A stretch of 64,000 nucleotides of DNA from an uncultured Pseudomonadota bacterium. GTDB taxonomy: Bacteria; Pseudomonadota; Alphaproteobacteria; RF32; CAG-239. Positions 16,266 through 61,230 of this stretch are shown in pieces. Below the pieces are notes generated by a model that saw only the letters and a program-made list of their open reading frames with translations, did not search any database and was not told where the DNA came from. Position 1 is the stretch's first letter, and each line of letters starts with the position of its first letter. The DNA lies in assembly GCA_902785935.1 (NCBI GenBank), contig CADAAN010000006.1:4309-68308 (forward strand), given 5' to 3'. The translations under genes and the position numbers were made by a program.

Positions 16266-17324
16266 ATGAAGAAATATGTTTGGGTTTTTGGACTTATTTT
16301 AAGTTATAATGCACAAGCTTATGATTATAATGATTGTTTTGGTGCAAGCGGATGTCAGCCCTGTCCGAATAGTACGGACGGCAAATGTTTTTATGCTGTT
16401 GAAGGCAGCAAAATGACAATTTATGGCCCGACATCAACCGAACAAAATGCAGATGGCAGCTTAAAAGAAACAACATCGATTCCGCGTTATGCCTTTACCA
16501 ACAGCGATAATGCCAGCAATTTGCCGGAAAATATCACTTCTCTTGAAATAACAGGTAATATCACAACCGTTGAAGGTTATGCTTTTTGCTCTGCCCCTCT
16601 GACAAATGTACAATTTCCTGAGACACTTGAAACAATATCGGAATTGGCTTTTTGGAACAATAATTTATCACAAATCAATTTTCCTAATTCGCTTAAAAAT
16701 ATAGAAGAAGGTGCTTTTAATTGGAATCCATTTTCAGAAATTAATTTACCCGACGGATTAATGACGCTGGAGGGGTTAACAGGTGTTCCCCTGGGGCATG
16801 TTGTTATTCCGGATTCGATTGCAGAGGTTAAAGATGCGATTTTTTCTTCAAACTATCGTTTGCAATCATTGGTTGTCGGCGCAGACACAATGCTTGGCAA
16901 TATTTTTACCTACACAACAGGGGCTGTTAGTGTGCAATTTGATAAATTCAAGATGTTTTGCGCAGAAAATAACGGCTCATGCACAACAGCTTTGCAAAGT
17001 GCCGGTGCAACACAAGAACAAATTGCGCAAATACTGATAAGTTATACAAAAGATGACGCAACAGGCGTTTATCAAACAAGTGACGGAAAATATTATGCCG
17101 ATGTCAATTTGATGGCAAGACAAATGGCTTGCGAAAATAAGCAAAGCTGTGAAATTGCCAGTGCTGATATTCGGGCAGGTCGTCCTTTTGATATGAAAGG
17201 AAAATCTTACGCATCTGTCGATGATTTCATTCAAGGAAAATATATTCCAAAGCGTATCTATACCATCGATGAAGCCAATCATGTCGCGGGCAAGACAAAC
17301 ACTTTTACGATTCGGTATCGATAG
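16266..17324 (+). CDS. secreted BspA-type leucine-rich-repeat protein with conserved C-terminal tail
   Basis: Signal peptide MKKYVWVFGLILSYNAQA; Cys-rich N-module; LRR_5-like repeats (ITSLEITGNITTVEGYAF...); C-terminus PKRIYTIDEANHVAGKTNTFTIRYR shared with 4 paralogs. Confidence 0.8.
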   Translation: MKKYVWVFGLILSYNAQAYDYNDCFGASGCQPCPNSTDGKCFYAVEGSKMTIYGPTSTEQNADGSLKETTSIPRYAFTNSDNASNLPENITSLEITGNITTVEGYAFCSAPLTNVQFPETLETISELAFWNNNLSQINFPNSLKNIEEGAFNWNPFSEINLPDGLMTLEGLTGVPLGHVVIPDSIAEVKDAIFSSNYRLQSLVVGADTMLGNIFTYTTGAVSVQFDKFKMFCAENNGSCTTALQSAGATQEQIAQILISYTKDDATGVYQTSDGKYYADVNLMARQMACENKQSCEIASADIRAGRPFDMKGKSYASVDDFIQGKYIPKRIYTIDEANHVAGKTNTFTIRYR

Positions 17325-20593: not shown

Positions 20594-21493
20594 TTATCTG
20601 TACCTGATTTTGACCGAATTGACTTTGCCTGCGATGGCATTTGCTTCATCGATGGTGTAGATACGCTTTGGGATATAATCTCCTTTTTGCATCGCGGAAA
20701 TTGAGGCATAAGTTTTCTCACCGATACGATATTTCCCGTCAGGTGTCTTAGAATAATGAATAATTTTCGGGTTTTTACCCGTTTGAAGCGCTATTCTTGA
20801 ACATACCTCTTCGGAAGCCGCACAATATAGTTTTTGAAGGTTTGTGTTTGTAAAAGCTTCATCATCAATATTTGTCACACTATTCGGAATAACAAGTGTT
20901 TCAAGTGTTGAAATATCAGCAAGAGACGTCCAACCGATTGAGGTTACACCTTCAGGGATTTCCAGATTTTTAAGTTTTGTTCCGACAAAAGCTCTATCAG
21001 GAATTTCTGTTTGAGCCTGCCCAAGCATCAAATAATCTATTTTTGTTGCCGCAAAACTCCAAGCACCGACATATTGAAGATTTAGAGGTGTATTAATTTC
21101 TTTTAATAAATCTGCACCCTGAAATGCAGCACCGCCAATTTGTTCAATAGAATCCGGCAAATCAATACTGCTGATTTTTGTATAAGCAAGTGTATAACTA
21201 CCGATATTGGTTAAAGAATCCGGCAATGAGACACTTCGAATAGTTTCAAGTTTTTCAACCCATGGTGTTCCCGGCCTTTGGTTTTTAGAATCCCATTCGT
21301 AATTTGTCATTTTTCCGACAGGTGCATTTTCATCTTTGGCTTCAATTGAAAAAAGACCTGTCTGCTCATTTAGTCTGGCAAGGCAATTAGCGCCGCAATC
21401 CCAACAATTGATGTTTAAATCATCACCGCAAGTATTGACTGCTTTAGCTTGAGAGCTCATTGTCAGTAAAAAAAATAAAATCCATTTTCTCAT
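20594..21493 (-). CDS. secreted BspA-type LRR protein with conserved C-terminal tail
   Basis: Signal peptide MRKWILFFLLTMSSQAKA; LRRs; C-terminus PKRIYTIDEANAIAGKVNSVKIRYR. Confidence 0.8.
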   Translation of the reverse strand: MRKWILFFLLTMSSQAKAVNTCGDDLNINCWDCGANCLARLNEQTGLFSIEAKDENAPVGKMTNYEWDSKNQRPGTPWVEKLETIRSVSLPDSLTNIGSYTLAYTKISSIDLPDSIEQIGGAAFQGADLLKEINTPLNLQYVGAWSFAATKIDYLMLGQAQTEIPDRAFVGTKLKNLEIPEGVTSIGWTSLADISTLETLVIPNSVTNIDDEAFTNTNLQKLYCAASEEVCSRIALQTGKNPKIIHYSKTPDGKYRIGEKTYASISAMQKGDYIPKRIYTIDEANAIAGKVNSVKIRYR

Positions 21494-24683: not shown

Positions 24684-27600
24684 ATGAAACATTATGCCGA
24701 AATAGGAGCAAAACCTGATTTTGTGAAACTTGAAAAAGAAGTCTTGAAATTTTGGGATGAGGATAAAACTTTTGAAAAATCCGTTCACAATCGTGACGGT
24801 GCCGCTGAGTTTGTGTTTTACGACGGCCCTCCGTTTGCAAACGGAACGCCGCACTATGGTCATATTATGGTCAGCTATGTCAAAGATGTTGTCGCACGCT
24901 TTCAGACCATGATGGGCAAAAAGGTTGAGCGTCGCTTGGGCTGGGATTGTCACGGACTTCCGGCCGAAATGTCGGCTGAAAAACAGCTTGGTGTTTCGGG
25001 GCGCAAGCAGATTGAAGAATACGGCGTTGAAAAATTTAATGATTTTTGCAGAGCTGACGTTTTGAAATATTCTTCAATTTGGGTTGATATGTTCAAGCGT
25101 ATCGGGCGTTGGGTCGATTTCAGCCATGATTATAAAACGATGGATTTGAGCTTTATGGAAAGCGTGATTAAAAACTTTAAGACCCTTTATGACAAAGGCC
25201 TTGTATATGAAGATTATCGCGTTTTGCCGTATTCTTGGGCAGCTCAAACGCCGCTTTCAAATTTTGAGGTCAATCAAGGCTATCAGGAAAAAACGGATAA
25301 CGCCATTACCGTGATGTTTGAGCTGGAAACGGGTGATAAAATTCTTGTTTGGACGACAACGCCATGGACGCTTCCTTCAAACTTAATGCTTGCGGTGGGC
25401 AAAGATATTGATTATGCCGTGATGCAAGAAGAAGACGGACAAAAATATATCATTGCCGAAGCTCGTTTAGGCGCATACAAAAAACAGCTTGAACATGCGG
25501 TCAAGGTCGGCTCTGTGAAAGGTGCTGATTTGGTCGGGCTTTCATATAAGCCGATGTTTAAATATTTTGAAGGCTTAAAAGCAAAAGGTGCATTTAAGGT
25601 ACTTTCGGGTGAATTTGTTTCAACCGAAGACGGTACGGGTGTTGTGCATATTGCCCCGGGATTTGGACAGGATGACTTTGATGCCTGCCGTGCATACGAT
25701 GAAAATTTTCCGATTGTTTGCCCTGTTGATGAGGCAGGTAAGTTTACGTCTGAAGTGCCTGATTATGAAGGCAAACAGGTTTTTGAAACAAATGAGCCGA
25801 TTATGACCTGGCTTAAAACAAACGGACTTCTTGTGAAAAAAGAGCAATATACGCACTCTTATCCGTTTTGCTGGCGCACCGACACCCCGCTTATTTATAA
25901 AGCGATGTCATCTTGGTTTGTCAAAGTCACTGATTTTAAGGATGAGATGGTCAGGAACAATCAAGAAATTAACTGGGTGCCAGAGCATATCAAAGACGGC
26001 CGTTTCGGAAAATGGCTTGAGGGTGCAAGAGATTGGTCGATTTCGCGCAATCGTTTTTGGGGTACGCCGATTCCCGTTTGGAAATCTGACAATCCGAAAT
26101 TCCCCCGCATTGATGTTTTCGGCTCGATTAATGAAATTAAAGAAAAAACAGGCTTTGATGTCAAAAATTTGCACAAGCCGTATATTGATGAGGTTGTTTA
26201 CCCTAACCCCGACGATCCGTCTGGTCAGACCATGATGCGCAGAGTTTCGGATGTGTTTGACTGTTGGTTTGAATCGGGCTCAATGCCGTATGCGCAGGTG
26301 CATTATCCGTTTGACAACAAAGCGTGGTTTGAAAATCACTTTCCGGCAGATTTTATTGTTGAAGCGATGGATCAGACAAGAGGTTGGTTTTACACATTGA
26401 CCGTTTTATCAACGGCTTTGATGGGCAAACCGGCATTTAAGAATTGCATTTGCACGGGGCTTTTGATGGCCGAAGGCGGACAAAAGCTTTCTAAAAGGCT
26501 TAAAAACTATCCTGACCCGAACGAGGTTTTAGAAAACATCGGTTCTGAGGCTTTGAGATGGTTTTTGGTTTCATCACCTGTCTTGAAGGGCGGCAATTTA
26601 GCTGTTGATAAAGAAGGCAAAGAGATATCAAAAGCGTTGCGCTCGGCATTAATTCCGCTGTGGAATGCGTTTTATTTCTTCGTTTTGTATGCCAATGCGG
26701 AAGAATATCAAGCCAAAGAAATCACTTCTTCAAGCGAGGCGATTGATAATTACATTTTATCAAAACTCAAAGTTTTGCGCGACCATGTAGAACACGGTCT
26801 TTCGACCTATGATGTATCTGAGGCCACGACAGAAGCAACAAACTTTATGGAAGTTTTGAACAACTGGTATATTCGCCGCACGCGCGATCGTTTTTGGTCA
26901 GGCGACAAGCAAGCTTTTGATACGCTTTATACCGTGCTTGTGGTTTTAAGCAAAATTCTGGCACCGTTGATGCCGTTTTTGAGTGAGTATGTTTATAAAA
27001 ATCTGACCAAGGGCGAATCAGTGCATTTGATTGATTTTCCAAAACTTGAAGATATCAAGGTTGATGAAGAATTGGTCAAAGATATGGATTTTGTGCAGTC
27101 ACTTTGTTCGGCCGGTAAATTTATCCGTGAAGAGAAAAATTTAAGAGGCCGTCTGCCGCTTGCATCATTGACGCTTGTCGGGGCTGAATTAACACCGGCT
27201 TATCAGGATATTGTCAAAGACGAGCTTAATGTCAAAGAGGTCAGGTTTGATAACAATTTGAGCCTTTATGCCGACAAAAAGCTATACCTTTATACGCCGC
27301 TTTTGGGCAAAACGCTCGGCAAAGATATGGGCAAAGTCATGGCCGCATACAAGCAAAATGAGTGGAGCTTGAACGATGACGGCACTTTAAATATTGCAGG
27401 GCTAAATTTGGCAAAAGACTTGTTTGAAGTTCGCCTTGATATGAAAGAGGGTATCGCGGGGCTTTCTTTTGCAGACAACAAGGCTGTTGTGATGCTTGAT
27501 ACCAATTTAACGCCTGAACTTAAGCGTGAGGGTATGGCGCGTGACTTTGTGCGTATGGTACAAACGATGCGTAAAGAAAAAGACTTTAACATTTCAGACC

Positions 27601-27776
27601 GCATCAAGCTTTGCTGGCATACGGACGATGCGGAGCTTGCACAAGCCTTAAATGACAATAAGGCCTATATTGCTCAGCAGGTTTTGGCGCTTGAGACGTC
27701 TGATGTTTGCACATCCGGCACGACCGATACCATTGAAGGGCAAAACATCACCTTTGATGCTGTCGTTGCAAAATAA
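24684..27776 (+). CDS. ileS: isoleucine--tRNA ligase (eukaryote-like/type 2)
   Basis: 1030 aa; PPFANGTPHYGH (HIGH-class), KLSKRLKNYPDP (KMSKS-class), editing domain; length and KLSKR variant typical of type-2 IleRS. Confidence 0.9.
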   Translation: MKHYAEIGAKPDFVKLEKEVLKFWDEDKTFEKSVHNRDGAAEFVFYDGPPFANGTPHYGHIMVSYVKDVVARFQTMMGKKVERRLGWDCHGLPAEMSAEKQLGVSGRKQIEEYGVEKFNDFCRADVLKYSSIWVDMFKRIGRWVDFSHDYKTMDLSFMESVIKNFKTLYDKGLVYEDYRVLPYSWAAQTPLSNFEVNQGYQEKTDNAITVMFELETGDKILVWTTTPWTLPSNLMLAVGKDIDYAVMQEEDGQKYIIAEARLGAYKKQLEHAVKVGSVKGADLVGLSYKPMFKYFEGLKAKGAFKVLSGEFVSTEDGTGVVHIAPGFGQDDFDACRAYDENFPIVCPVDEAGKFTSEVPDYEGKQVFETNEPIMTWLKTNGLLVKKEQYTHSYPFCWRTDTPLIYKAMSSWFVKVTDFKDEMVRNNQEINWVPEHIKDGRFGKWLEGARDWSISRNRFWGTPIPVWKSDNPKFPRIDVFGSINEIKEKTGFDVKNLHKPYIDEVVYPNPDDPSGQTMMRRVSDVFDCWFESGSMPYAQVHYPFDNKAWFENHFPADFIVEAMDQTRGWFYTLTVLSTALMGKPAFKNCICTGLLMAEGGQKLSKRLKNYPDPNEVLENIGSEALRWFLVSSPVLKGGNLAVDKEGKEISKALRSALIPLWNAFYFFVLYANAEEYQAKEITSSSEAIDNYILSKLKVLRDHVEHGLSTYDVSEATTEATNFMEVLNNWYIRRTRDRFWSGDKQAFDTLYTVLVVLSKILAPLMPFLSEYVYKNLTKGESVHLIDFPKLEDIKVDEELVKDMDFVQSLCSAGKFIREEKNLRGRLPLASLTLVGAELTPAYQDIVKDELNVKEVRFDNNLSLYADKKLYLYTPLLGKTLGKDMGKVMAAYKQNEWSLNDDGTLNIAGLNLAKDLFEVRLDMKEGIAGLSFADNKAVVMLDTNLTPELKREGMARDFVRMVQTMRKEKDFNISDRIKLCWHTDDAELAQALNDNKAYIAQQVLALETSDVCTSGTTDTIEGQNITFDAVVAK

Positions 27777-27796
27777 ATGAAGTGTAACATATAAAA

Positions 27797-27831
27797 ACAG
27801 GCGCCTTGATGATATTTAAGGTGCCTGTTTA
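27797..27831 (+). terminator. intrinsic terminator after ileS
   Basis: aacaggcgcc...ggtgcctgttt hairpin with T-run. Confidence 0.6.
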
Positions 27832-28090
27832 AATATTTTGTTGATAAGAAAAGTACTAAAAAATAAGGAAAAAATGCATTTTTATACAAAAAATAAACAA
27901 AAAAATAAAATTTTTTGCATTTTTTGCTTGTTTTTCGATTCAAAATGTGATACATTGACAACATAAAAGTACCATAAGTTATGTTTATAAGAATTAATAA
28001 CTATTGTGAACGGGTTGAAGATTTTTTTGAAGTCTTGCCTGCGTTGTACTTTTGAAATTTGAAAAATTAATCATCAAATATTTTACAATT

Positions 28091-29188
28091 ATGGCAGACA
28101 TTAAAAAGATCGCGGTATGTGTCCTTATGACCATGGCCGCAACAACCATGAAAATTAACGCGCAAAATTTAAGCCAGCAGGTGGCATCAGACGGAGCACG
28201 CTCCATCGCCGCTCAGACCTTCAAAAAGGCTCAGGTATGGCGGACTGAAGAATTTCAGGTCTACGCCGACTGTAGCCTTACCGAACGGGAAGCCACGCTT
28301 CCGACCGGAGAGATTGTCAAAGTGAAAATCGACAAGTCGGAACGGGTTTACGGGCCGATGCAGTCGGTCGCCAAAGACGGATTTTCCGTCGCCGTGGGCG
28401 GAGGTTTGAACTACATGGCGCAAAGAGGTGCGCCTGAGTTCTTCAATAACTTCCAGCCGCAGGCCGGCATCAGCCTCCGTGCAGACGGAATTGGCTGGTG
28501 TAAAACGGAAACGCAGACCCGCGTTTATCGTGAGGTCTACGCTTATGCCGTTGGTGGAACCATCCTCATGGCAGTGATGCCGTGGGAATGGAAAGGCGAG
28601 ATGCCTGGCATCGTTTGGTTCGAAAGAACCAATGAGGGCTATTTCGTCTGGCTCACTCGCCCGAGCGGCCGTGAGGTGGTGGAAGGACAGATCCTTTACC
28701 GTGAGGTGGAGGAAGAGGTCCCCGTTATCACATCCCAGCATCGCCCCTTTGCGGCTGAGCTGGCTGTGAGTGGAAGCTTCCGCCGCTATGAGCCGGGTGC
28801 CGAGTCCGCTTCGAAAAACTATATCAGCTACAGCACCACGCTGTACCTGAAATATCGTTTGTTCGAGGACAAATGGCTCCGCCACCGCCTGAATCTTGTT
28901 GGTTCCGCGGGTTATCAATTCTGCAAGGATGACACCAATGTCGTCCTTGACAAGGAATATCCCATGTACTACATGGGAAGTGGAATAACCTTCGGGGGCG
29001 GGCTGGAATATCGTTTCCAGTTCCCCGCCACCATCAACAAGGCGGGCAAAATTAATAAATTCATGGCAGGTTCTGCCTTGAATTTATACGTAGGAGCCCA
29101 GTCGGTGCCTATCGTGACCCCCGGCTACACAAGGCGGGAAGTCATGGTCATGACGACCCTTTCGTGGTCGTTCGGAATGTTCCGTTAA
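28091..29188 (+). CDS. putative outer-membrane beta-barrel protein on an abruptly GC-rich (~55%) insert
   Basis: Signal peptide MADIKKIAVCVLMTMAATTMKINA; alternating amphipathic strands, C-terminal ...SWSFGMFR; GC content sharply above flanks. Confidence 0.55.
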   Translation: MADIKKIAVCVLMTMAATTMKINAQNLSQQVASDGARSIAAQTFKKAQVWRTEEFQVYADCSLTEREATLPTGEIVKVKIDKSERVYGPMQSVAKDGFSVAVGGGLNYMAQRGAPEFFNNFQPQAGISLRADGIGWCKTETQTRVYREVYAYAVGGTILMAVMPWEWKGEMPGIVWFERTNEGYFVWLTRPSGREVVEGQILYREVEEEVPVITSQHRPFAAELAVSGSFRRYEPGAESASKNYISYSTTLYLKYRLFEDKWLRHRLNLVGSAGYQFCKDDTNVVLDKEYPMYYMGSGITFGGGLEYRFQFPATINKAGKINKFMAGSALNLYVGAQSVPIVTPGYTRREVMVMTTLSWSFGMFR

Positions 29189-29406
29189 TTTGCGCAAAAG
29201 TTAAAGCACTCCCCTTAAAAGGAGTGCTTTTTCTGTTTTAAAACTTAAAAAAGCAACCTGCCTGCTAAACCGGAGCATTGCTTTTTTTATATTATTTTTT
29301 ATAAAGGGGATAAATTATGAGAAAACGGATTTTGGTTTTAGGATTGATACGTATTAATAACGACCTTGCTTCTTAACTTTATCCGCACACAAAAAGAAAT
29401 TTTTGC

Positions 29407-30540
29407 CTAACGATATCGAATCGAGAAGGTGTTTGTTTTGCCCGCCACCTGATTCGCCTCATCGACGGTATAAATGCGCTTGCCCTCATAGCCGATAATC
29501 TTGCCATCTTCATAAATGGCCGTACTTCCATCGGCTAATTTTTTAGAGTATTTAACTGCCATAATGTCAGCAAAGTCATTCGGGTCAAGCCCTGCCGCCT
29601 CAATATTTCTTTGGCACTTAGCGACAGATCCGGCACACTGTATTTCTATGTTGCTTATATCAAGGTTATCGAAAGGAGAATAAATTCTGTCATAACTAAA
29701 AAATACTTCACAGCTATCCATTTCATATGTACAGCCGGCTTCTAAAGCTTTACTATAAAGTTGTGTATAATCTTCTTCGCTCATATGGCTACGGTTATTT
29801 TCTACATTTTCTAAGCTGTAAAAATCATCTTCTATCACATATCTGCTGAATGCAAAATTAAAATCATCTGATACTGTGATTCTTTCAAGATTTTTAATAC
29901 CCTTAAAAGCACCTTCATCAATATACTCAACCGAATCTGGCAATGTAAGGCTTATCAAACCTGACATACCCATAAAAGCATCTCTCTCTATATTTGTAAC
30001 CGAATCCGGAATAGTAAGATTAGTAACGTTTCTCATATACGCAAATGCAGTATCTTCAATATTTTTCAGTGAATTTGGTAAAGTTAAATTTGTAACAGCA
30101 GTAACATCATAAAATGCACCGCTACCGATATCTTCCACCGCATTACCGATTGTTAAATTTGTTACGTTAATCATATTACTAAAAGCACGATCACCAATAG
30201 AAACCACAGAATCTGAAATTTCAATGGATGTAGCATTTGTAGCTTCTCTAAAAGCATTATTTCCAATTGTCGTTATACCTTTTTCTACAACAACAGAGGT
30301 GATATCTTCGCGAATAGCATGCCATGGCATACTGTAATGATACCAACCAGAATAATTCTTATTTTCAAAATCATCCATAGCACCAGTGCCGGAAATAGTC
30401 AAAATACCGCTATCCGTATCCAAGCTCCAATAGCAATTCTCGCCGCATTTTTTGTAGCCGCTGTTTGTACCAATAATATCTGCTTTGACGCCTGAGGATA
30501 ACAAAATAAATCCCATCATCAGAATACATTTATTTTTCAT
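29407..30540 (-). CDS. secreted BspA-type LRR protein with conserved C-terminal tail
   Basis: Signal peptide MKNKCILMMGFILLSSGVKA; ~8 LRR_5 repeats (VTNLTIGNAVEDIGSGAF...); C-terminus KRIYTVDEANQVAGKTNTFSIRYR. Confidence 0.85.
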   Translation of the reverse strand: MKNKCILMMGFILLSSGVKADIIGTNSGYKKCGENCYWSLDTDSGILTISGTGAMDDFENKNYSGWYHYSMPWHAIREDITSVVVEKGITTIGNNAFREATNATSIEISDSVVSIGDRAFSNMINVTNLTIGNAVEDIGSGAFYDVTAVTNLTLPNSLKNIEDTAFAYMRNVTNLTIPDSVTNIERDAFMGMSGLISLTLPDSVEYIDEGAFKGIKNLERITVSDDFNFAFSRYVIEDDFYSLENVENNRSHMSEEDYTQLYSKALEAGCTYEMDSCEVFFSYDRIYSPFDNLDISNIEIQCAGSVAKCQRNIEAAGLDPNDFADIMAVKYSKKLADGSTAIYEDGKIIGYEGKRIYTVDEANQVAGKTNTFSIRYR

Positions 30541-40815: not shown

Positions 40816-41673
40816 TTAGCGATACCGAATCGAAAAAGTGTTTGTCTTGCCTGCAACTTGATTGGCCTCATCGATGGTGTAAATGCGCTTTGGTGCGTAA
40901 TGTTGATTGTAAATATCATTTGGGGAACTGTAAAACCTTCCGTTATAATAATAACCTGTTGAGTATTTTTGATAAAATTTAATTTTATCGCCAATTTCTT
41001 CATCGTCTAAAAGAGCCTGACAACTGGCATTTGTGTCTTCGCAATAAATAGCCAAAGATTCTGACAATGCTTTATTTATGGAATTAGTAAGCATTTTTTT
41101 TGTAATCATGGTCGAACCGGATATGGTTAAAGATTTCAATTCCGTGCCGCCTAATGTCCAATCTTCATCTTCAAGAATAACATCTTTGGGTAATACAATA
41201 TCTTCAACTTTTGTACGATTAAAATTAGCCCCTCCGATAAAAGTCAGACTATTTGGTAAATTAATTTTTTCAAGTGATTGAGTATCATTAAAAGCACCAC
41301 CCGAAATCTTTTGAAGTCCTTCGGGTAAAACAGCCTCTCGCAAATCAAACAAATATTCAAAAGCAGAAGAACCAATTGATTTAAATATTTTATCACTTGA
41401 TTCGTTTTCGATAACGACTTTATAAATTTGTGAAGAATAGGCTCCCCAATCGGCTGTATTATGGCACCATGGGTCACAGCTGTGACTATAATTTTTCATA
41501 TCACCATAACCTTTAATGGTTAATGTATTCGTGTTTTTATCAAGTGTTGCTGTACAACTATCATTTGAGGTTGCCGCACAGTCAAATGTACAAATATCAC
41601 TGTTATCACAAAGTGTATCAGCATATGTATTAAAAGCCGTAAATATACAAAAAATATAAATTACTTTTCTCAT
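40816..41673 (-). CDS. secreted LRR-family protein with conserved C-terminal tail
   Basis: True start MRKVIYIFCIFTAFNTYA (signal peptide) at 41673 with GGAG RBS; track ORF extends spuriously into leader; C-terminus PKRIYTIDEANQVAGKTNTFSIRYR. Confidence 0.8.
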   Translation of the reverse strand: MRKVIYIFCIFTAFNTYADTLCDNSDICTFDCAATSNDSCTATLDKNTNTLTIKGYGDMKNYSHSCDPWCHNTADWGAYSSQIYKVVIENESSDKIFKSIGSSAFEYLFDLREAVLPEGLQKISGGAFNDTQSLEKINLPNSLTFIGGANFNRTKVEDIVLPKDVILEDEDWTLGGTELKSLTISGSTMITKKMLTNSINKALSESLAIYCEDTNASCQALLDDEEIGDKIKFYQKYSTGYYYNGRFYSSPNDIYNQHYAPKRIYTIDEANQVAGKTNTFSIRYR

Positions 41674-41952
41674 ATCTTTTCTCCAAAATTTATTAAACGA
41701 AAAAACCACTCTAAAATGAGCGGCGGGGAGTAAAAGAATCATGTAATGGAAAATGACTTCCGTAACCTTTAGGTCAAAACCTTGAACATACGCCACGGAC
41801 TCCCCAACCAAAATATCGGGGATAAGCATTGTTTTAAAATAAAAAAACAACACTAAAACAGCGTTATCTCTCACTGTCCATTACAAAAGCTCTTTTAAAG
41901 CCCCGCACCCTTTTCGGGTACTTGATAGAAAAAGCCAAAACCTTCCTATCTG
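41674..41952 (-). promoter_or_regulatory. type-2 conserved 5' leader with attenuator hairpin
   Basis: Promoter TTGACA-17-AATAAT (41959..41987); conserved blocks identical to other two copies; terminal hairpin ccgctc-atttta-gagtgg + T6. Confidence 0.7.
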
Positions 41953-45086: not shown

Positions 45087-45986
45087 TTATCGATACCTTA
45101 TTTTGAAAGAATTAACCTTGCCCGCGACGGCATTCGCCTCGTCGATGGTATAAATGCGGATATCGGCACGAGCAGGAACAGATGGCAAGACAGATGGAGA
45201 AACAGTTCCTGATGCTGAAGCAATTTTTGCTCTGCAAGAAGTCTCCGTTTCGCAACCCTCTTCCGTTCCTCCCAACATCATTTTTGCTGCTGAAGAGTAA
45301 TAATTATCACCAACTTTATATACCCCATCTTCTTTAGTATATTGTTCAATTTTTGACGTCCCATGGCCTTTACAAATATTAACATCTTCGCAAAAAAGTT
45401 TTGTGTTGCTGGCAAACGGAAAGTTAACAATTGTTGTTCCTCTGCTAATAATGACATTGTTCAAGGATTCATTTTGAAAGCTACTTCCAAAAGCATCCTG
45501 ATTAATTTTCGTTACACCGCTTAAATCAATATCATGCAGGTTGGTTGTATATGTAAAAGCGCCACTTCCAATTTCTTTAACTCCTGTAAAATCCACACTC
45601 GACAAAGCAGATCGCGAAAAAGCGGTTCCGCCGATTGATGTAACACCGCTTGCAAAAGCAAGTGAGGTTACACCTTGAGGAAGCATTGATGTCCCATAAG
45701 TGTCATCTGCAAAAGCTGATCTCGGTACTTTGTATGTGAGATTGCCGTTTGAATCTGTTGAAGTAATTGATGACCCCTGAATGGTCATTTTTCCGTTATC
45801 AATAGTGTAGTATGTGAGCATATGAGAGGCATAGCTACTGGCTTGCGACAAACATCCTTCGCCATAAGTTGAAACACAAGCCTGACAAAATGTGTTCCCT
45901 TCAGGGCACTCAATTAAAGCAATGGAAATTTTTGAAAATGAAACTGTTGCTACTAATGCCGAGGTTAAAAAAATATTTCTAGTCAT
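45087..45986 (-). CDS. secreted surface protein, member of the conserved-C-tail family
   Basis: Signal peptide MTRNIFLTSALVATVSFS; Cys-rich N-module, degenerate LRR-like repeats; C-terminus RIYTIDEANAVAGKVNSFKIRYR. Confidence 0.75.
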   Translation of the reverse strand: MTRNIFLTSALVATVSFSKISIALIECPEGNTFCQACVSTYGEGCLSQASSYASHMLTYYTIDNGKMTIQGSSITSTDSNGNLTYKVPRSAFADDTYGTSMLPQGVTSLAFASGVTSIGGTAFSRSALSSVDFTGVKEIGSGAFTYTTNLHDIDLSGVTKINQDAFGSSFQNESLNNVIISRGTTIVNFPFASNTKLFCEDVNICKGHGTSKIEQYTKEDGVYKVGDNYYSSAAKMMLGGTEEGCETETSCRAKIASASGTVSPSVLPSVPARADIRIYTIDEANAVAGKVNSFKIRYR

Positions 45987-51655: not shown

Positions 51656-52186
51656 ATGAAAAATTTAAAAATTAAAAAGGGAGCCCTGCGCATTCGCCAG
51701 GCCTCTTTGGTGCTCGACACCAGAAAAACATTGCTAGCCATCAAGCTCACTGAGGCAGAAGCGTTTTCGCCTGAGGTGTTCTCCAAAAAATTCAAGGATT
51801 ATCCTTTAGGAAAACGCCTTGAATTTGGAGAAAAATACGAGGGATACATTGCCATCTGGCACCTCGGAAGACCGGAGATTAATTTTCTCCGCGGCACGCT
51901 TGAGCTTCAAACGGAGCGTGCCATCTGGAATACCCGGATCAATGAGCTCCTACAGGAAGAAAGGTACCTCCGCGTCGACGGCTCGCTGGAGTATGTTTGG
52001 GCCTTTGCCGATTGTTCATCAGAGATGATGGACACGGTAAAAGAAAAGCTCACAACAGCCCTGAGAATGTCCGCCCTCACCGGTGATGATCCTATTGCCC
52101 GGCTGACGGATGAAGAAGACAGGAACCTCAGGAAATACCTGGGGAGCTCGTACTATAAGACCTTCTTCACTGAACTGGAAGACTAG
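51656..52186 (+). CDS. hypothetical protein on a GC-rich (~52%) insert
   Basis: ORF track; first ~25 nt AT-rich then abrupt GC-rich coding; followed by GC-rich terminator 52204..52235. Confidence 0.5.
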   Translation: MKNLKIKKGALRIRQASLVLDTRKTLLAIKLTEAEAFSPEVFSKKFKDYPLGKRLEFGEKYEGYIAIWHLGRPEINFLRGTLELQTERAIWNTRINELLQEERYLRVDGSLEYVWAFADCSSEMMDTVKEKLTTALRMSALTGDDPIARLTDEEDRNLRKYLGSSYYKTFFTELED

Positions 52187-55373: not shown

Positions 55374-55490
55374 CAATATATTCATATTTTTTTAAGGCAA
55401 AACAATATTTTTTCTTGACAAACGGACAAAAGTGAAGTATAAGCTATTTTAATACAGTATACATATGTTTCACTTAAATTTATAATAATT

Positions 55491-56090
55491 ATGGAAAAGA
55501 TTAAATCTGCTGTCAATGAAGCAGCGTTTATTCAAAGCGCTGACAGAGAAACTGTCAAGGAGTACATCTCCAGACACCCCCTCCACATAGAAGCTGATAT
55601 CCAGCTCCTTGAACGTGGAGATAAGGAACTTATTAAGCTTTACATCTCGCAGTTTTGCTTTTTGAGCAAGGCTGAAATCAAGCTCATCGAGCTTAAAGAT
55701 AAGGAACTTATTAAGCTTTATATCTCTCGCTGCGGCTTTGAGGATGAGGCCAAAATCAAGTTCCTGGAGATGAAGGATGTGGAGCTGATTAAGTTTTATA
55801 TCTCGAAACGGCCGTTTTTCAAAGCGGACATTAAGTTCCTTGAGCTCGGAAACAAAGAACTTATCGAGCTTTACATCTCGAAGTACAGATTTGAGGCTGA
55901 AGCGGAAATCAAGCTCATCGAGCTTAAAGATAAGGAACTTATCAAGCTTTACATCAAAAATCATCGCCTGAGAGATGATGCTGAGATGAAGCTCCTCGAT
56001 CTGAAGGATATGGAGCTGATTAAGATGTATGCCTTATATCAAGGCTTTTCTGTAAGCACGCAGATAAACATCTGTGAACTTATTGTTTAG
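55491..56090 (+). CDS. tandem-repeat protein (6-7 x 26-aa ELIKLYIS..E.KLIELKDK repeats)
   Basis: 78-bp DNA tandem repeats from ~55600..56050; the antisense frame is also open because of the repeats, so strand is uncertain. Confidence 0.4.
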   Translation: MEKIKSAVNEAAFIQSADRETVKEYISRHPLHIEADIQLLERGDKELIKLYISQFCFLSKAEIKLIELKDKELIKLYISRCGFEDEAKIKFLEMKDVELIKFYISKRPFFKADIKFLELGNKELIELYISKYRFEAEAEIKLIELKDKELIKLYIKNHRLRDDAEMKLLDLKDMELIKMYALYQGFSVSTQINICELIV

Positions 56091-59994: not shown

Positions 59995-60609
59995 TTAGTA
60001 GAATTTCCAAGAAACCGTTGCTTGTTCGGTGCATGTAGCTACAGCACCTGTACCCGAAGCTCCGCCCATCGGATAAGGTTTACCCTCATCAGCACCTAGT
60101 ACTTTACCTTTGGCATAATTTGTACCGGTAGAAGCTTCAATTTCTACACCGATAAAACCCGAACCGGCACCCGAACCAAAATCAGCCGTTGCAAGTGCAA
60201 TGCAAGCCTCCTTAGGTAATCCTTTGTAACTGATTACAAAGGCTGTTGGTTTTGCATCACCAGTAATTGCTGTATTGACAGCAGAAATTGTATTTGAAGT
60301 AGCCATAGCTTCTAAAATTTGAACACTTCCTTTAAATGGGTTTGTTAAAGCGGCAGGAGATGTACCCATTACAGGCGGAACAATTCCTAAACTGACAGCT
60401 TGTGTCGCCAAGCCGGCGTAGTTACCCTGCTGTCCATACATTGTTCGGATGTTTGTCACAAGCATTGTGATTTGTTCCATTGTCGTGTTGAGTTTGTGTT
60501 TGAACATCGCTTTTGAATAGCCTGCCAAACCGCCGGCTGACAAAACACCGATAATCGCCAAAACACCAAGCATTTCAACCATTGAACGACCATTTTGATT
60601 ATTCTTCAT
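59995..60609 (-). CDS. type IV pilin-like protein
   Basis: MKNNQNG|RSMVEMLGVLAIIGVLSAGGLAGYSKAMF; second gene of a two-pilin operon. Confidence 0.65.
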   Translation of the reverse strand: MKNNQNGRSMVEMLGVLAIIGVLSAGGLAGYSKAMFKHKLNTTMEQITMLVTNIRTMYGQQGNYAGLATQAVSLGIVPPVMGTSPAALTNPFKGSVQILEAMATSNTISAVNTAITGDAKPTAFVISYKGLPKEACIALATADFGSGAGSGFIGVEIEASTGTNYAKGKVLGADEGKPYPMGGASGTGAVATCTEQATVSWKFY

Positions 60610-60648: not shown

Positions 60649-61230
60649 TTAATAGAACTTCCAAATGATTGTGTTTTTTGCACCTGCACAATCACTAACT
60701 GCATCAGCCATTTCATACGCTTTTCCCTCAGCACGTTTGTTTGCAATGCCTGTACCAATGACTATAGAAGATCCATCTGCTGAGGCTGCTGCAGTACCTG
60801 TTTTATCGGCTATAACACCTACAAAACCTGAACCTGCGCCTGAACCAAAGTCAGACGTTGCCAAAGCAATACAAGCTTCTGTTGGTAAACCATCAAAAGC
60901 GACTGTAAATGATTCATTGTTTGTACCTGTAGCAACAATATTAACATTACCCTTAAATGGGTTTGTAAGTGTGGCTCCACTACCCATAACAGCCGGAACA
61001 ACACCAAGACTTGATGCTTCTGTATTTGTTAATCCCGCATAATTTCCCTGTGTGCCGTACATTGTACGGATATTCGTCACAAGCATTGTGATTTGATCCA
61101 TGGTGGTATTGAGTTTGTGCTTGAACATGGCCTTTGAATAACCTGCCAAACCGCCGGCTGACAAAACACCGATGATGGCAAGTACGCCAAGCATTTCGAC
61201 CATACTACGGCCGTTTTCGTTATTTTTCAT
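60649..61230 (-). CDS. type IV pilin-like protein
   Basis: MKNNENG|RSMVEMLGVLAIIGVLSAGGLAGYSKAMF; N-terminal 60 aa nearly identical to 59995..60609. Confidence 0.65.
   Translation of the reverse strand: MKNNENGRSMVEMLGVLAIIGVLSAGGLAGYSKAMFKHKLNTTMDQITMLVTNIRTMYGTQGNYAGLTNTEASSLGVVPAVMGSGATLTNPFKGNVNIVATGTNNESFTVAFDGLPTEACIALATSDFGSGAGSGFVGVIADKTGTAAASADGSSIVIGTGIANKRAEGKAYEMADAVSDCAGAKNTIIWKFY

Follow-up and report, generated by a model that had tools for sequence, protein, structure and literature searches.

A GC-rich, hypervariable gene for a probable small outer-membrane barrel in AT-rich genomes of an uncultured alphaproteobacterial clade

In hypervariable surface-protein systems such as PorB, PorA and Opa of Neisseria and OspC of Borrelia, allele divergence far exceeds that of the flanks, the alleles are built of mosaic blocks, and conserved flanks mark their limits. 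We know of no +15-point cross-species excess in G+C content (GC) in these Neisseria and Borrelia variable surface systems. The Borrelia vls locus (vlsE), at which antigenic variation arises by gene conversion, is a recombining surface locus with GC far above that of its AT-rich genome (~50% against ~28%). Barrels of the PF13505 superfamily (8-stranded; Brucella Omp25/Omp31, rhizobial RopB), to which the Pfam families Opacity (PF02462) and Surface_Ag_2 (PF01617) are related, combine a Sec signal with an all-beta C-terminal barrel. Phage morons and outer-membrane protein (OMP) islets (lambda Lom/Bor, Ail-like) carry a single OMP gene of deviant composition with its own promoter and terminator. 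Here we describe a gene that resembles each of these in part, the open reading frame (ORF) 28091..29188 (+) of a 64-kb window, by which we mean the whole stretch of DNA analyzed (64,000 nucleotides). It is a compositionally aberrant, hypervariable new variant of the small outer-membrane barrel type from an uncultured clade. We are fairly confident of a joint reading in which its high GC is an inherited, equilibrium property of the family coding sequence in AT-rich hosts, its product is an outer-membrane barrel, and its alleles are hypervariable and recombining.

The ORF has a GC of 0.538 (0.541, 0.432 and 0.642 at the first, second and third codon positions, GC1 to GC3), compared with 0.388 for the whole window. 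The GC maximum of the 64 kb is a 1.1-kb stretch starting at 28101 (0.537; window mean 0.389, standard deviation [sd] 0.040), and relative to 50 other long ORFs of the window the gene deviates by +3.3 sd (GC) and +3.9 sd (GC3). The deviation from the host is +15 points in GC and +27 points in GC3. The sliding-window GC and codon analysis proposed in a preliminary description of this DNA thus identifies the gene as the strongest compositional outlier of the 64 kb. A profile in 200-nucleotide (nt) steps has GC at 0.225-0.25 over 27800-28099, at 0.51-0.595 over 28100-28899 and back down at 0.32 over 29200-29399. The jump from ~30% to ~55% reported in that description is therefore real and sharp, but the value of ~30% holds for the intergenic spacers only (22-32%). 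The neighboring genes, ileS (43%) and a BspA-type leucine-rich repeat (LRR) gene (37%), are where that description had placed them, and the true contrast with them is ~+15 points, not +25. GC drops to 22-32% exactly at the start and stop codons of the barrel ORF; its first ~10 codons are AT-rich, and GC skew within it is weak.

Relatives of the product are few. A word-indexed search of 5.8 billion proteins returned 7, an exhaustive profile search with HMMER over 1.84 billion cluster representatives returned 21, and a second word-indexed search with an 18-sequence profile returned 22. The only taxon label on family members is "Alphaproteobacteria bacterium" (metagenome-assembled genomes, MAGs, from gut and rumen), and the family is confined to gut and rumen Alphaproteobacteria known from MAGs only. 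Genomic contexts were recovered for homologs with 29-48% amino acid (aa) identity to the window protein. They are given here by locus (L) and protein (P), with GC/GC3 of the gene, GC of the host and gene order.

L001 (P0005, 47% identity): gene 0.524/0.623; host 0.397; rplQ, gene, HU
L007 (P0003, 48% identity): gene 0.529/0.623; host 0.365 (1.3 kb of flanks only); rplQ, gene, HU
L091 (P0006): gene 0.498/0.563; contig of 1.26 kb holding the gene only
L095 (P0010, 34% identity): gene 0.485/0.552; host 0.367; secA, gene, HU
L100 (P0009): gene 0.509/0.624; host 0.415; gene, HU
L101 (P0014): gene 0.538/0.661; host 0.419; anmK, gene, BOF
L103 (P0013): gene 0.533/0.671; host 0.397; lipoprotein, gene
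L094 (P0007): gene 0.505/0.593; host 0.427 (2.3 kb of flanks only); lipoprotein, gene, mraZ
L104 (P0046): gene 0.513/0.575; host 0.409; lipoprotein, gene, mraZ

In all ten contexts (the window and these nine), the family gene is the GC/GC3 outlier of its AT-rich contig. In L103, L104 and L094 this status is shared only with the lipoprotein gene just upstream, and in L101 a canonical PF13505 OMP gene 1.2 kb away has an ordinary composition (GC 0.417, GC3 0.422). Since all relatives, each in an AT-rich genome, have an equally high GC, this composition is a long-kept family trait and not a recent high-GC import. Between the window gene and P0005, synonymous divergence (dS) has reached saturation (>3), indicating that a GC3 of ~0.6 was kept through complete synonymous turnover. 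The substitution spectrum of close alleles is in line with this. Polarized synonymous singletons in three sets of close alleles gave ratios of strong-to-weak (S, G or C; W, A or T) over weak-to-strong changes of 58:31, 69:53 and 44:38, counts that rest on parsimony applied to recombining alleles and are, we stress, crude. All three sets fall below the ~3:1 expected for neutral decay from a GC3 of 0.64 toward the host value of 0.37 (p = 0.02, 7e-6 and 2e-5); a ratio of 1:1 would fit two of them.

The preliminary description had proposed recent acquisition from a high-GC donor with no amelioration. A single-gene transfer from a donor of ~55% GC would account for the fact that all three codon positions resemble a genome of 52-55% GC and that codon choice is foreign to the window; the gene also has its own promoter and terminator in the manner of a moron, and it was found beside ileS in 0/80 related species. 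We nevertheless regard such a transfer as very improbable. The GC excess is shared by all divergent homologs across nine further AT-rich contexts, the synonymous spectrum is close to equilibrium, the AT-rich flanks are conserved, synteny with HU is kept elsewhere, and the neighborhood of ileS is not syntenic in any relative. The protein search that had been suggested to identify the donor lineage yielded only the small alphaproteobacterial family and no candidate donor, and no high-GC relative was found among the billions of proteins searched. IMG/VR, the INPHARED phages and the PLSDB plasmids contain no relatives. At the borders, where the neighbors are ileS and LRR/PMT_2 genes, there are no mobility genes or terminal repeats, only low-complexity A/T repeats. 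Unlike phage morons, the gene lacks a prophage context and any phage, IMG/VR or plasmid relative, and it is conserved with its flanks across the clade. The contrary case named in the preliminary description was a conserved gene under unusual compositional constraint, and this is in substance what the homolog contexts present; acquisition from a high-GC donor is unsupported, as is the absence of amelioration. Deviant GC is routinely taken as a sign of recent transfer, a rule that misleads for this native, clade-restricted family.

The stretch ~27884-29240 is one monocistronic expression unit, made up of A/T tracts, an extended -10 promoter, a leader, the ORF and an intrinsic terminator. The single-gene nature of the GC-rich block, as first described, is borne out by this self-contained arrangement. 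The unit and its surroundings comprise the following features.

24684-27776: ileS, 43% GC, upstream neighbor
27795..27830 (+): ileS intrinsic terminator, with a 15-bp stem and then a T-run; outside the unit, of which it is the upstream limit
27884..27927 (+): conserved A/T-tract block ACAAAAAATAAACAAAAAAAT...TTTTTTGC, directly 5' of the promoter
27928..27956 (+): putative sigma-70 promoter with extended -10; -35 TTGTTT at 27928-27933, -10 TACATT at 27951-27956
27963..28090 (+): 5' leader of ~128 nt from its predicted start; contains the box TGTGAACGGGTTGA at 28005-28018 and also ...TCTTGCCTG...
28091..29188 (+): coding sequence of 365 aa; ATG at 28091 preferred over TTG at 28052
28091..28162 (+): aa 1-24 of the product, a Sec signal peptide ending at the signal peptidase I site INA|Q
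28187..28918 (-): antisense shadow ORF of 243 aa, not regarded as a gene
28500..28740 (+): region of the ~80-aa insertion, ~aa 137-216, missing from family members of 220-290 aa in the alignment
29203..29240 (+): intrinsic terminator of the unit, AAAGCACTCCCC..GGAGTGCTTT (29203-29230) and a T-run; kept in the family
29407-30540 (-): BspA-type LRR_5 gene, 37% GC, downstream neighbor

Regulatory flanks are conserved where the surrounding genes are not. About 210 nt upstream and the downstream terminator align between the window and L001, L007, L095 and L100, whose surrounding genes differ. Similarity to other family loci starts only downstream of the ileS terminator; at the other end, the window terminator aligns with those of L001, L095 and L100, and similarity stops just past it. 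The A/T-tract block aligns with L001, L007 and L095 despite protein identities of 34-48%, and tracts resembling it are present in L101, L103 and L104; it may act like an UP element. The 15-mer AAAAATAAACAAAAA within it (27889-27903) occurs once in the window and elsewhere, among 103 loci, only upstream of family genes, and across these loci and the window the box TGTGAACGGGTTGA in the leader is likewise restricted to positions 5' of family genes. A common promoter architecture and spacing is seen in six contexts (the window, L001, L095, L101, L103 and L104). It consists of A/T tracts, a -35 of TTGTTT, a 17-nt spacer ending in TGn, a -10 of TAYATT/TAGATT and a leader of 100-140 nt; in the window the 17-nt spacer ends in TGa (TG at 27948-27949). 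A generic promoter scanner did not list 27928..27956 because its -35 is weak, and the putative assignment is based on conservation across loci. Such extremely AT-rich, clade-conserved flanks are hard to square with a high-GC donor.

The ATG at 28091 is the start in all homologs, which open with MA(D/K)..KKI, and the TTG at 28052 given by the ORF finder is unsupported. No Shine-Dalgarno motif precedes this ATG at 28080-28090 (..TTTTACAATTATG), nor is there one at the same position in L001, L007 and L095; the HU genes next to it in related loci have a clear one, AAGGAA. Translation of the barrel gene, whose product is presumably abundant, may therefore initiate independently of a Shine-Dalgarno sequence. 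The leader is better conserved than the ORF between the window and L001. It matched no Rfam family above threshold, its single-sequence fold was no better than those of shuffled sequences (z -0.42), and no consensus RNA structure was found across 10 leaders. A closing stem and hairpin suggested by five sequences, with few compensatory pairs, vanished when 10 leaders were used, and the leader was rejected as a structured RNA. Scanning metagenomes with the leader motif returned two short contigs only, one of which is a new allele (L099).

In some relatives the unit contains two genes. A lipoprotein gene followed by the barrel gene is found at L103:4396-5589, L104:7383-9788 and L094:2-1402, all with short-barrel family members. 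In L103 and L104 the conserved promoter precedes the lipoprotein gene, and both ORFs are GC-rich. The lipoprotein has a lipobox (..SC) and a conserved C-terminus, WNWR[DN]GNFS..V.GY...NG.L.ISYNGQ.V..L[KR]; its gene has a GC3 of 0.52-0.62, and no Pfam match was found. Linkage with HU is a second recurring arrangement. The barrel gene lies directly upstream of HU in L001/L007, L095 and L100 (three or four lineages). HU is 95-99% identical between L001, L095 and L100, and the adjacent barrel proteins, of unequal lengths, are 34-40% identical.

L001 and L007 belong to the same species as judged by their flanks. Here rplQ, both spacers and HU are ~99% identical (HU dS 0.015), whereas the barrel ORF has a dS of 0.83 and a nonsynonymous divergence (dN) of 0.11. 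Divergence begins 12 nt past the ATG and stops at the stop codon. Within the ORF, blocks of 100% identity alternate with blocks of ~75%, and the longest identical run is 163 nt at an overall divergence of 19% (permutation p<1e-4). The window lineage is represented by four alleles (the window, L097, L096 and L099) with 7-15% nucleotide divergence and a nearly identical leader; the window and L097 share an identical run of 218 nt (p=1e-4). The differences between alleles are clustered, and other pairs of either group gave p values of 0.007-0.025. Variation peaks in the N-terminal part, in the insertion and at residues ~280-295; at aa 161-200, identity with the P0005 group falls to 0.2-0.3, compared with 0.65-0.75 in the C-terminal barrel core. 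Gene-wide dN/dS is ~0.12 in all close pairs and did not exceed 1, which indicates that old alleles are being exchanged and argues against a burst of positive selection. Gene-only contigs of ~1.2 kb recur in public assemblies (L096, L097, L099, L008-L010 and L091-L093) and break ~100 nt upstream and a few nt past the stop codon. These breaks fit strain-level allelic heterogeneity combined with AT-rich, low-complexity flanks.

Genes for surface proteins and OMPs are typical hot regions of recombination (PMC4866539). In the mechanism that we propose, divergent alleles (dS 0.25-0.8) would be shuffled as mosaics and swapped through homologous recombination; the breakpoints would lie at the conserved promoter/leader and terminator, as observed for the sister lineage L001/L007 and consistent with the data for the window lineage. 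The product would be a Sec-exported protein that inserts into the outer membrane as a small barrel of the PF13505 superfamily resembling Opa, Omp25 and OpcA, with the variable N-terminal part and the ~80-aa insertion probably exposed at the surface. Selection on this surface protein by phages, predators or host immunity is the likely driver. The family has no sequence relationship to the Neisseria proteins or OspC, from which its dN/dS of ~0.12 also sets it apart. Borrelia vls differs in another way, as it relies on segmental conversion from adjacent silent cassettes, has a strong GC skew and encodes a lipoprotein. The locus described here encodes a barrel and has a weak skew, and tblastn detected the gene just once in the 64-kb window and once per locus with its +-10 kb, with no silent cassettes or paralogs.

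Alleles so much older than their flanks (~50x; dS 0.83 vs 0.015) raise the alternative of a cassette that is native to unsampled, GC-richer members of the clade and is repeatedly passed to AT-rich relatives, so that each copy is young in its host. The ileS loci of the clade do span 0.32-0.53 GC, the family occupies varied positions (ileS/LRR, rplQ/HU, secA/HU, anmK/BOF, lipoprotein/mraZ), and the conserved flanks could act as homology arms. However, 0/10 contexts are GC-rich, the flanks that would travel with the gene have only 22-32% GC, and the singletons show no strong decay. Moreover, the co-transcribed lipoprotein gene is also GC-enriched, which suggests a property of the locus or transcript. 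We therefore consider a circulating cassette of this kind unlikely and retain the reading of an inherited equilibrium.

An equilibrium at such a high GC would require a GC-favoring force that persists, with two candidates: GC-biased gene conversion (gBGC) at a hot spot for recombination, and transcript-level selection for stability, or for translation, of the mRNA of a very abundant OMP. Codon choice was used to compare the two. C-ending codons are strongly preferred among pyrimidine-ending (NNY) codons (TTC 0.83 vs 0.15 in the window background, GAC 0.90 vs 0.25, ACC 0.58 vs 0.18; ATC 0.65), and G-ending codons among purine-ending (NNR) codons (CAG 0.81 vs 0.30, GAG 0.50 vs 0.26). By comparison, groEL, rplQ and HU of a related genome show a mild shift to C in NNY codons and no shift in NNR codons (GC3 0.24-0.47; CAG 0.32, GAG 0.21, ACC 0.25). 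GC1 is ~0.10 above that of a canonical OMP, and amino acids with GC-rich codons are enriched. The W-to-S excess runs through all three codon positions, and a shift that takes in NNY codons, NNR codons and GC1 resembles a general W-to-S pressure more than adaptation to tRNAs.

Selection on expression alone, with GC-rich codons of a major OMP favored for translation or mRNA stability and recombination irrelevant to composition, would explain several observations. These are the strong preference for C-ending NNY codons, toward which groEL, rplQ and HU shift weakly, the restriction of the GC excess to the ORFs of the transcript, the AT-rich first ~10 codons, the strong, conserved promoter, and the position of the L001 gene beside rplQ, groEL and HU. 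We judge it rather unlikely, because NNR codons shift to G (CAG, GAG) although highly expressed genes prefer A, the choices for Thr, Val and Leu are unlike those of highly expressed genes, GC1 exceeds that of a canonical OMP by 0.10, and the GC3 of HU, rplQ, groEL, tig and pgk is only 0.24-0.47. That other presumably highly expressed genes lack a similar GC shift also tells against transcript selection as one of the two forces that might sustain the inherited composition.

For gBGC, high GC3 and recombination coincide in this family, and the shift includes codons that are not favored in groEL, rplQ and HU. Bacterial GC has been found to correlate with intragenic recombination independently of codon optimality (PMC4450053). 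Several points count against it: the GC excess halts at the ORF ends and does not extend into adjacent non-coding DNA, +27 points of GC3 far exceeds reported bacterial gBGC effects, and in a survey of ten species correlations between GC and recombination were weak and inconsistent (PMC4866539). The conserved regulatory flanks could resist the bias. We lean slightly to the recombination-linked explanation over transcript selection; that gBGC at a surface-protein recombination hot spot holds the family ~25 GC3 points above its genomes clade-long is a tentative proposal. If true, it would make this the most extreme and cleanest case of bacterial gBGC. Loci of this kind are rare natural experiments that set biased gene conversion against selection opposing AT-biased mutation, with a built-in control in the common promoter that drives GC-rich ORFs in many AT-rich species.

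A constraint imposed by a gene on the opposite strand (ORF 28187-28918, 243 aa) has a negligible chance of explaining the composition. The antisense frame aligned with the codons runs without a stop for 298 codons in the window, 366 in L001 (L001:10001-11098 (-)) and 323 in L007, but for only 70 in L095, 137 in L091 and 147 in L100; it is unconserved in L103 and L094, and the product of ORF 28187-28918 has no Pfam match. Avoidance of TTA, CTA and TCA codons in the barrel gene is most likely why the antisense frame is open.

The signal peptide reported earlier is apparent, as a Sec signal, in the protein sequence, MADIKKIAVCVLMTMAATTMKINA|Q, which has a basic n-region, a hydrophobic core and an NAQ motif kept family-wide, and the OMP-like strands noted with it agree with a predicted all-beta fold. 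PF13505 (OMP_b-brl) was matched by 9/18 aligned family members at E<=1. Two distant members exceeded its gathering cut-off of 28.7 bits (P0019, 38 bits; P0039, 44 bits), and P0019 is linked to the profile of the window family at E=2e-7. One member was named "opacity protein-like surface antigen" in a source. AlphaFold2 with the 18-sequence alignment returned an almost all-beta model (predicted local distance difference test, pLDDT, 79.4; predicted template-modeling score, pTM, 0.67), which supersedes a poor model from 7 sequences (pLDDT 52.8). The 50 best Foldseek matches in the PDB were mostly outer-membrane barrels and secretin pores (OpcA, NanC, OmpG, FapF, porins) with a few unrelated structures, and all were weak (E>=2e-3, TM score <=0.36). 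The C-terminal barrel of the family carries the motif YTGSG.T.GGGLEYR. Compared with the short members, the window protein is ~120 aa longer and has a variable N-terminal part and the ~80-aa insertion; family members of 220-290 aa lack this segment (~137-216 of the window protein) and part of the N-terminal region. No similarity was found that would derive the insertion or the N-terminal part from the lipoprotein encoded upstream of the short members.

The barrel assignment also has evidence against it. The window protein itself matched nothing in Pfam (E<=0.1) or NCBIfam, the link to PF13505 is transitive and covers the C-terminal ~140 aa only, and an hhalign profile comparison with one canonical PF13505 protein was negative. 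The C-terminus (...LSWSFGMFR) ends in Arg and not in the aromatic residue usual for proteobacterial OMPs; relatives end in ...SFGTSRKVAQ or ...FGINRWIVR, an aromatic-rich last strand followed by basic residues. The lack of a Pfam match, the Arg end and the extreme, conserved GC excess distinguish the window protein from canonical PF13505 proteins. We hold with good but not complete confidence that the gene encodes a small outer-membrane barrel bearing additional beta elements that are probably exposed; one of these, the ~80-aa insertion, would form an exposed beta extension. It is probably an abundant, as yet uncharacterized hypervariable surface protein of uncultured gut and rumen Alphaproteobacteria, and as such a candidate for a receptor of phages or a determinant of host interaction, as well as a marker useful for strain typing.

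The position of the unit in the window lineage fits the joint reading less well. In the window genome the barrel gene has no HU neighbor, and none of the 80 related species has a gene order around ileS in common with the window. The flank-versus-ORF contrast in divergence is seen only over ~110 nt upstream in this lineage, since its allelic contigs are ~1.2 kb long. The whole cassette may have arrived laterally from a relative, and such an arrival would still be exchange within the clade of an already GC-rich native family. The missing HU neighbor and the unshared ileS context indicate that either the unit was relocated or the genome was rearranged around it. The comparison of presence and absence in relatives that had been proposed found a family gene within +-10 kb of ileS in 0/80 related species (ileS 72-91% identical); with no synteny shared there, this absence carries no weight.

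The ileS loci were informative in other respects. Gene order around ileS is unconserved even where the isoleucyl-tRNA synthetase (IleRS) is 91% identical, and only ileS aligns at the DNA level (L011-L090); genome order in the clade appears heavily scrambled. Several ileS records are labeled Bacteroidaceae, [Ruminococcus] gnavus or Lactobacillaceae, and IleRS identities of 76-81% to the alphaproteobacterial enzyme of the window suggest mislabeled bins. Just one further strong GC spike was seen in the 80 ileS loci (L049:2004-6044; 0.53 vs 0.42); it lies in the Ser/Gly-repeat tail of a 1346-aa Cys-rich secreted protein, a different phenomenon that reflects low-complexity repeats.

Other genes of the window also stand out. 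A block at 289-6206 has very low GC (26-34%, GC3 0.22-0.29) and encodes an ATP-grasp protein, an APH-like kinase, a GT1 glycosyltransferase and an Hsp70/MreB-like ATPase; it is followed at 6214-7092 by a gene for a pentapeptide-repeat protein with an HTH_17 (excisionase-like) domain. Judged by composition, this low-GC block makes a stronger case for an accessory or acquired island than the barrel gene does. Two further ORFs with high GC3 (51656-52186 and 55491-56090) were considered as members of the same class as the barrel gene and rejected, their products being non-secreted and without a Pfam match. The second of them, 55491-56090 (+), encodes repeats of ~25 aa (..KELIKLYIS....F..EAEIK.LEL.D..) and overlaps a long ORF on the other strand, 55470-55964 (-). 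The window contains at least five BspA-type LRR_5 genes (16266-17324, 20594-21493, 29407-30540, 40816-41829 and 45087-45986). Genes of this type are also scattered in L001, L002 and L090; the paralogous family is strikingly abundant in the clade and often lies at synteny breaks. Finally, 59995-60609 and 60649-61230 (-) are tandem type IVb pilin-like genes (Bundlin/PilS N-terminal domains) with a high GC2 of 0.49.

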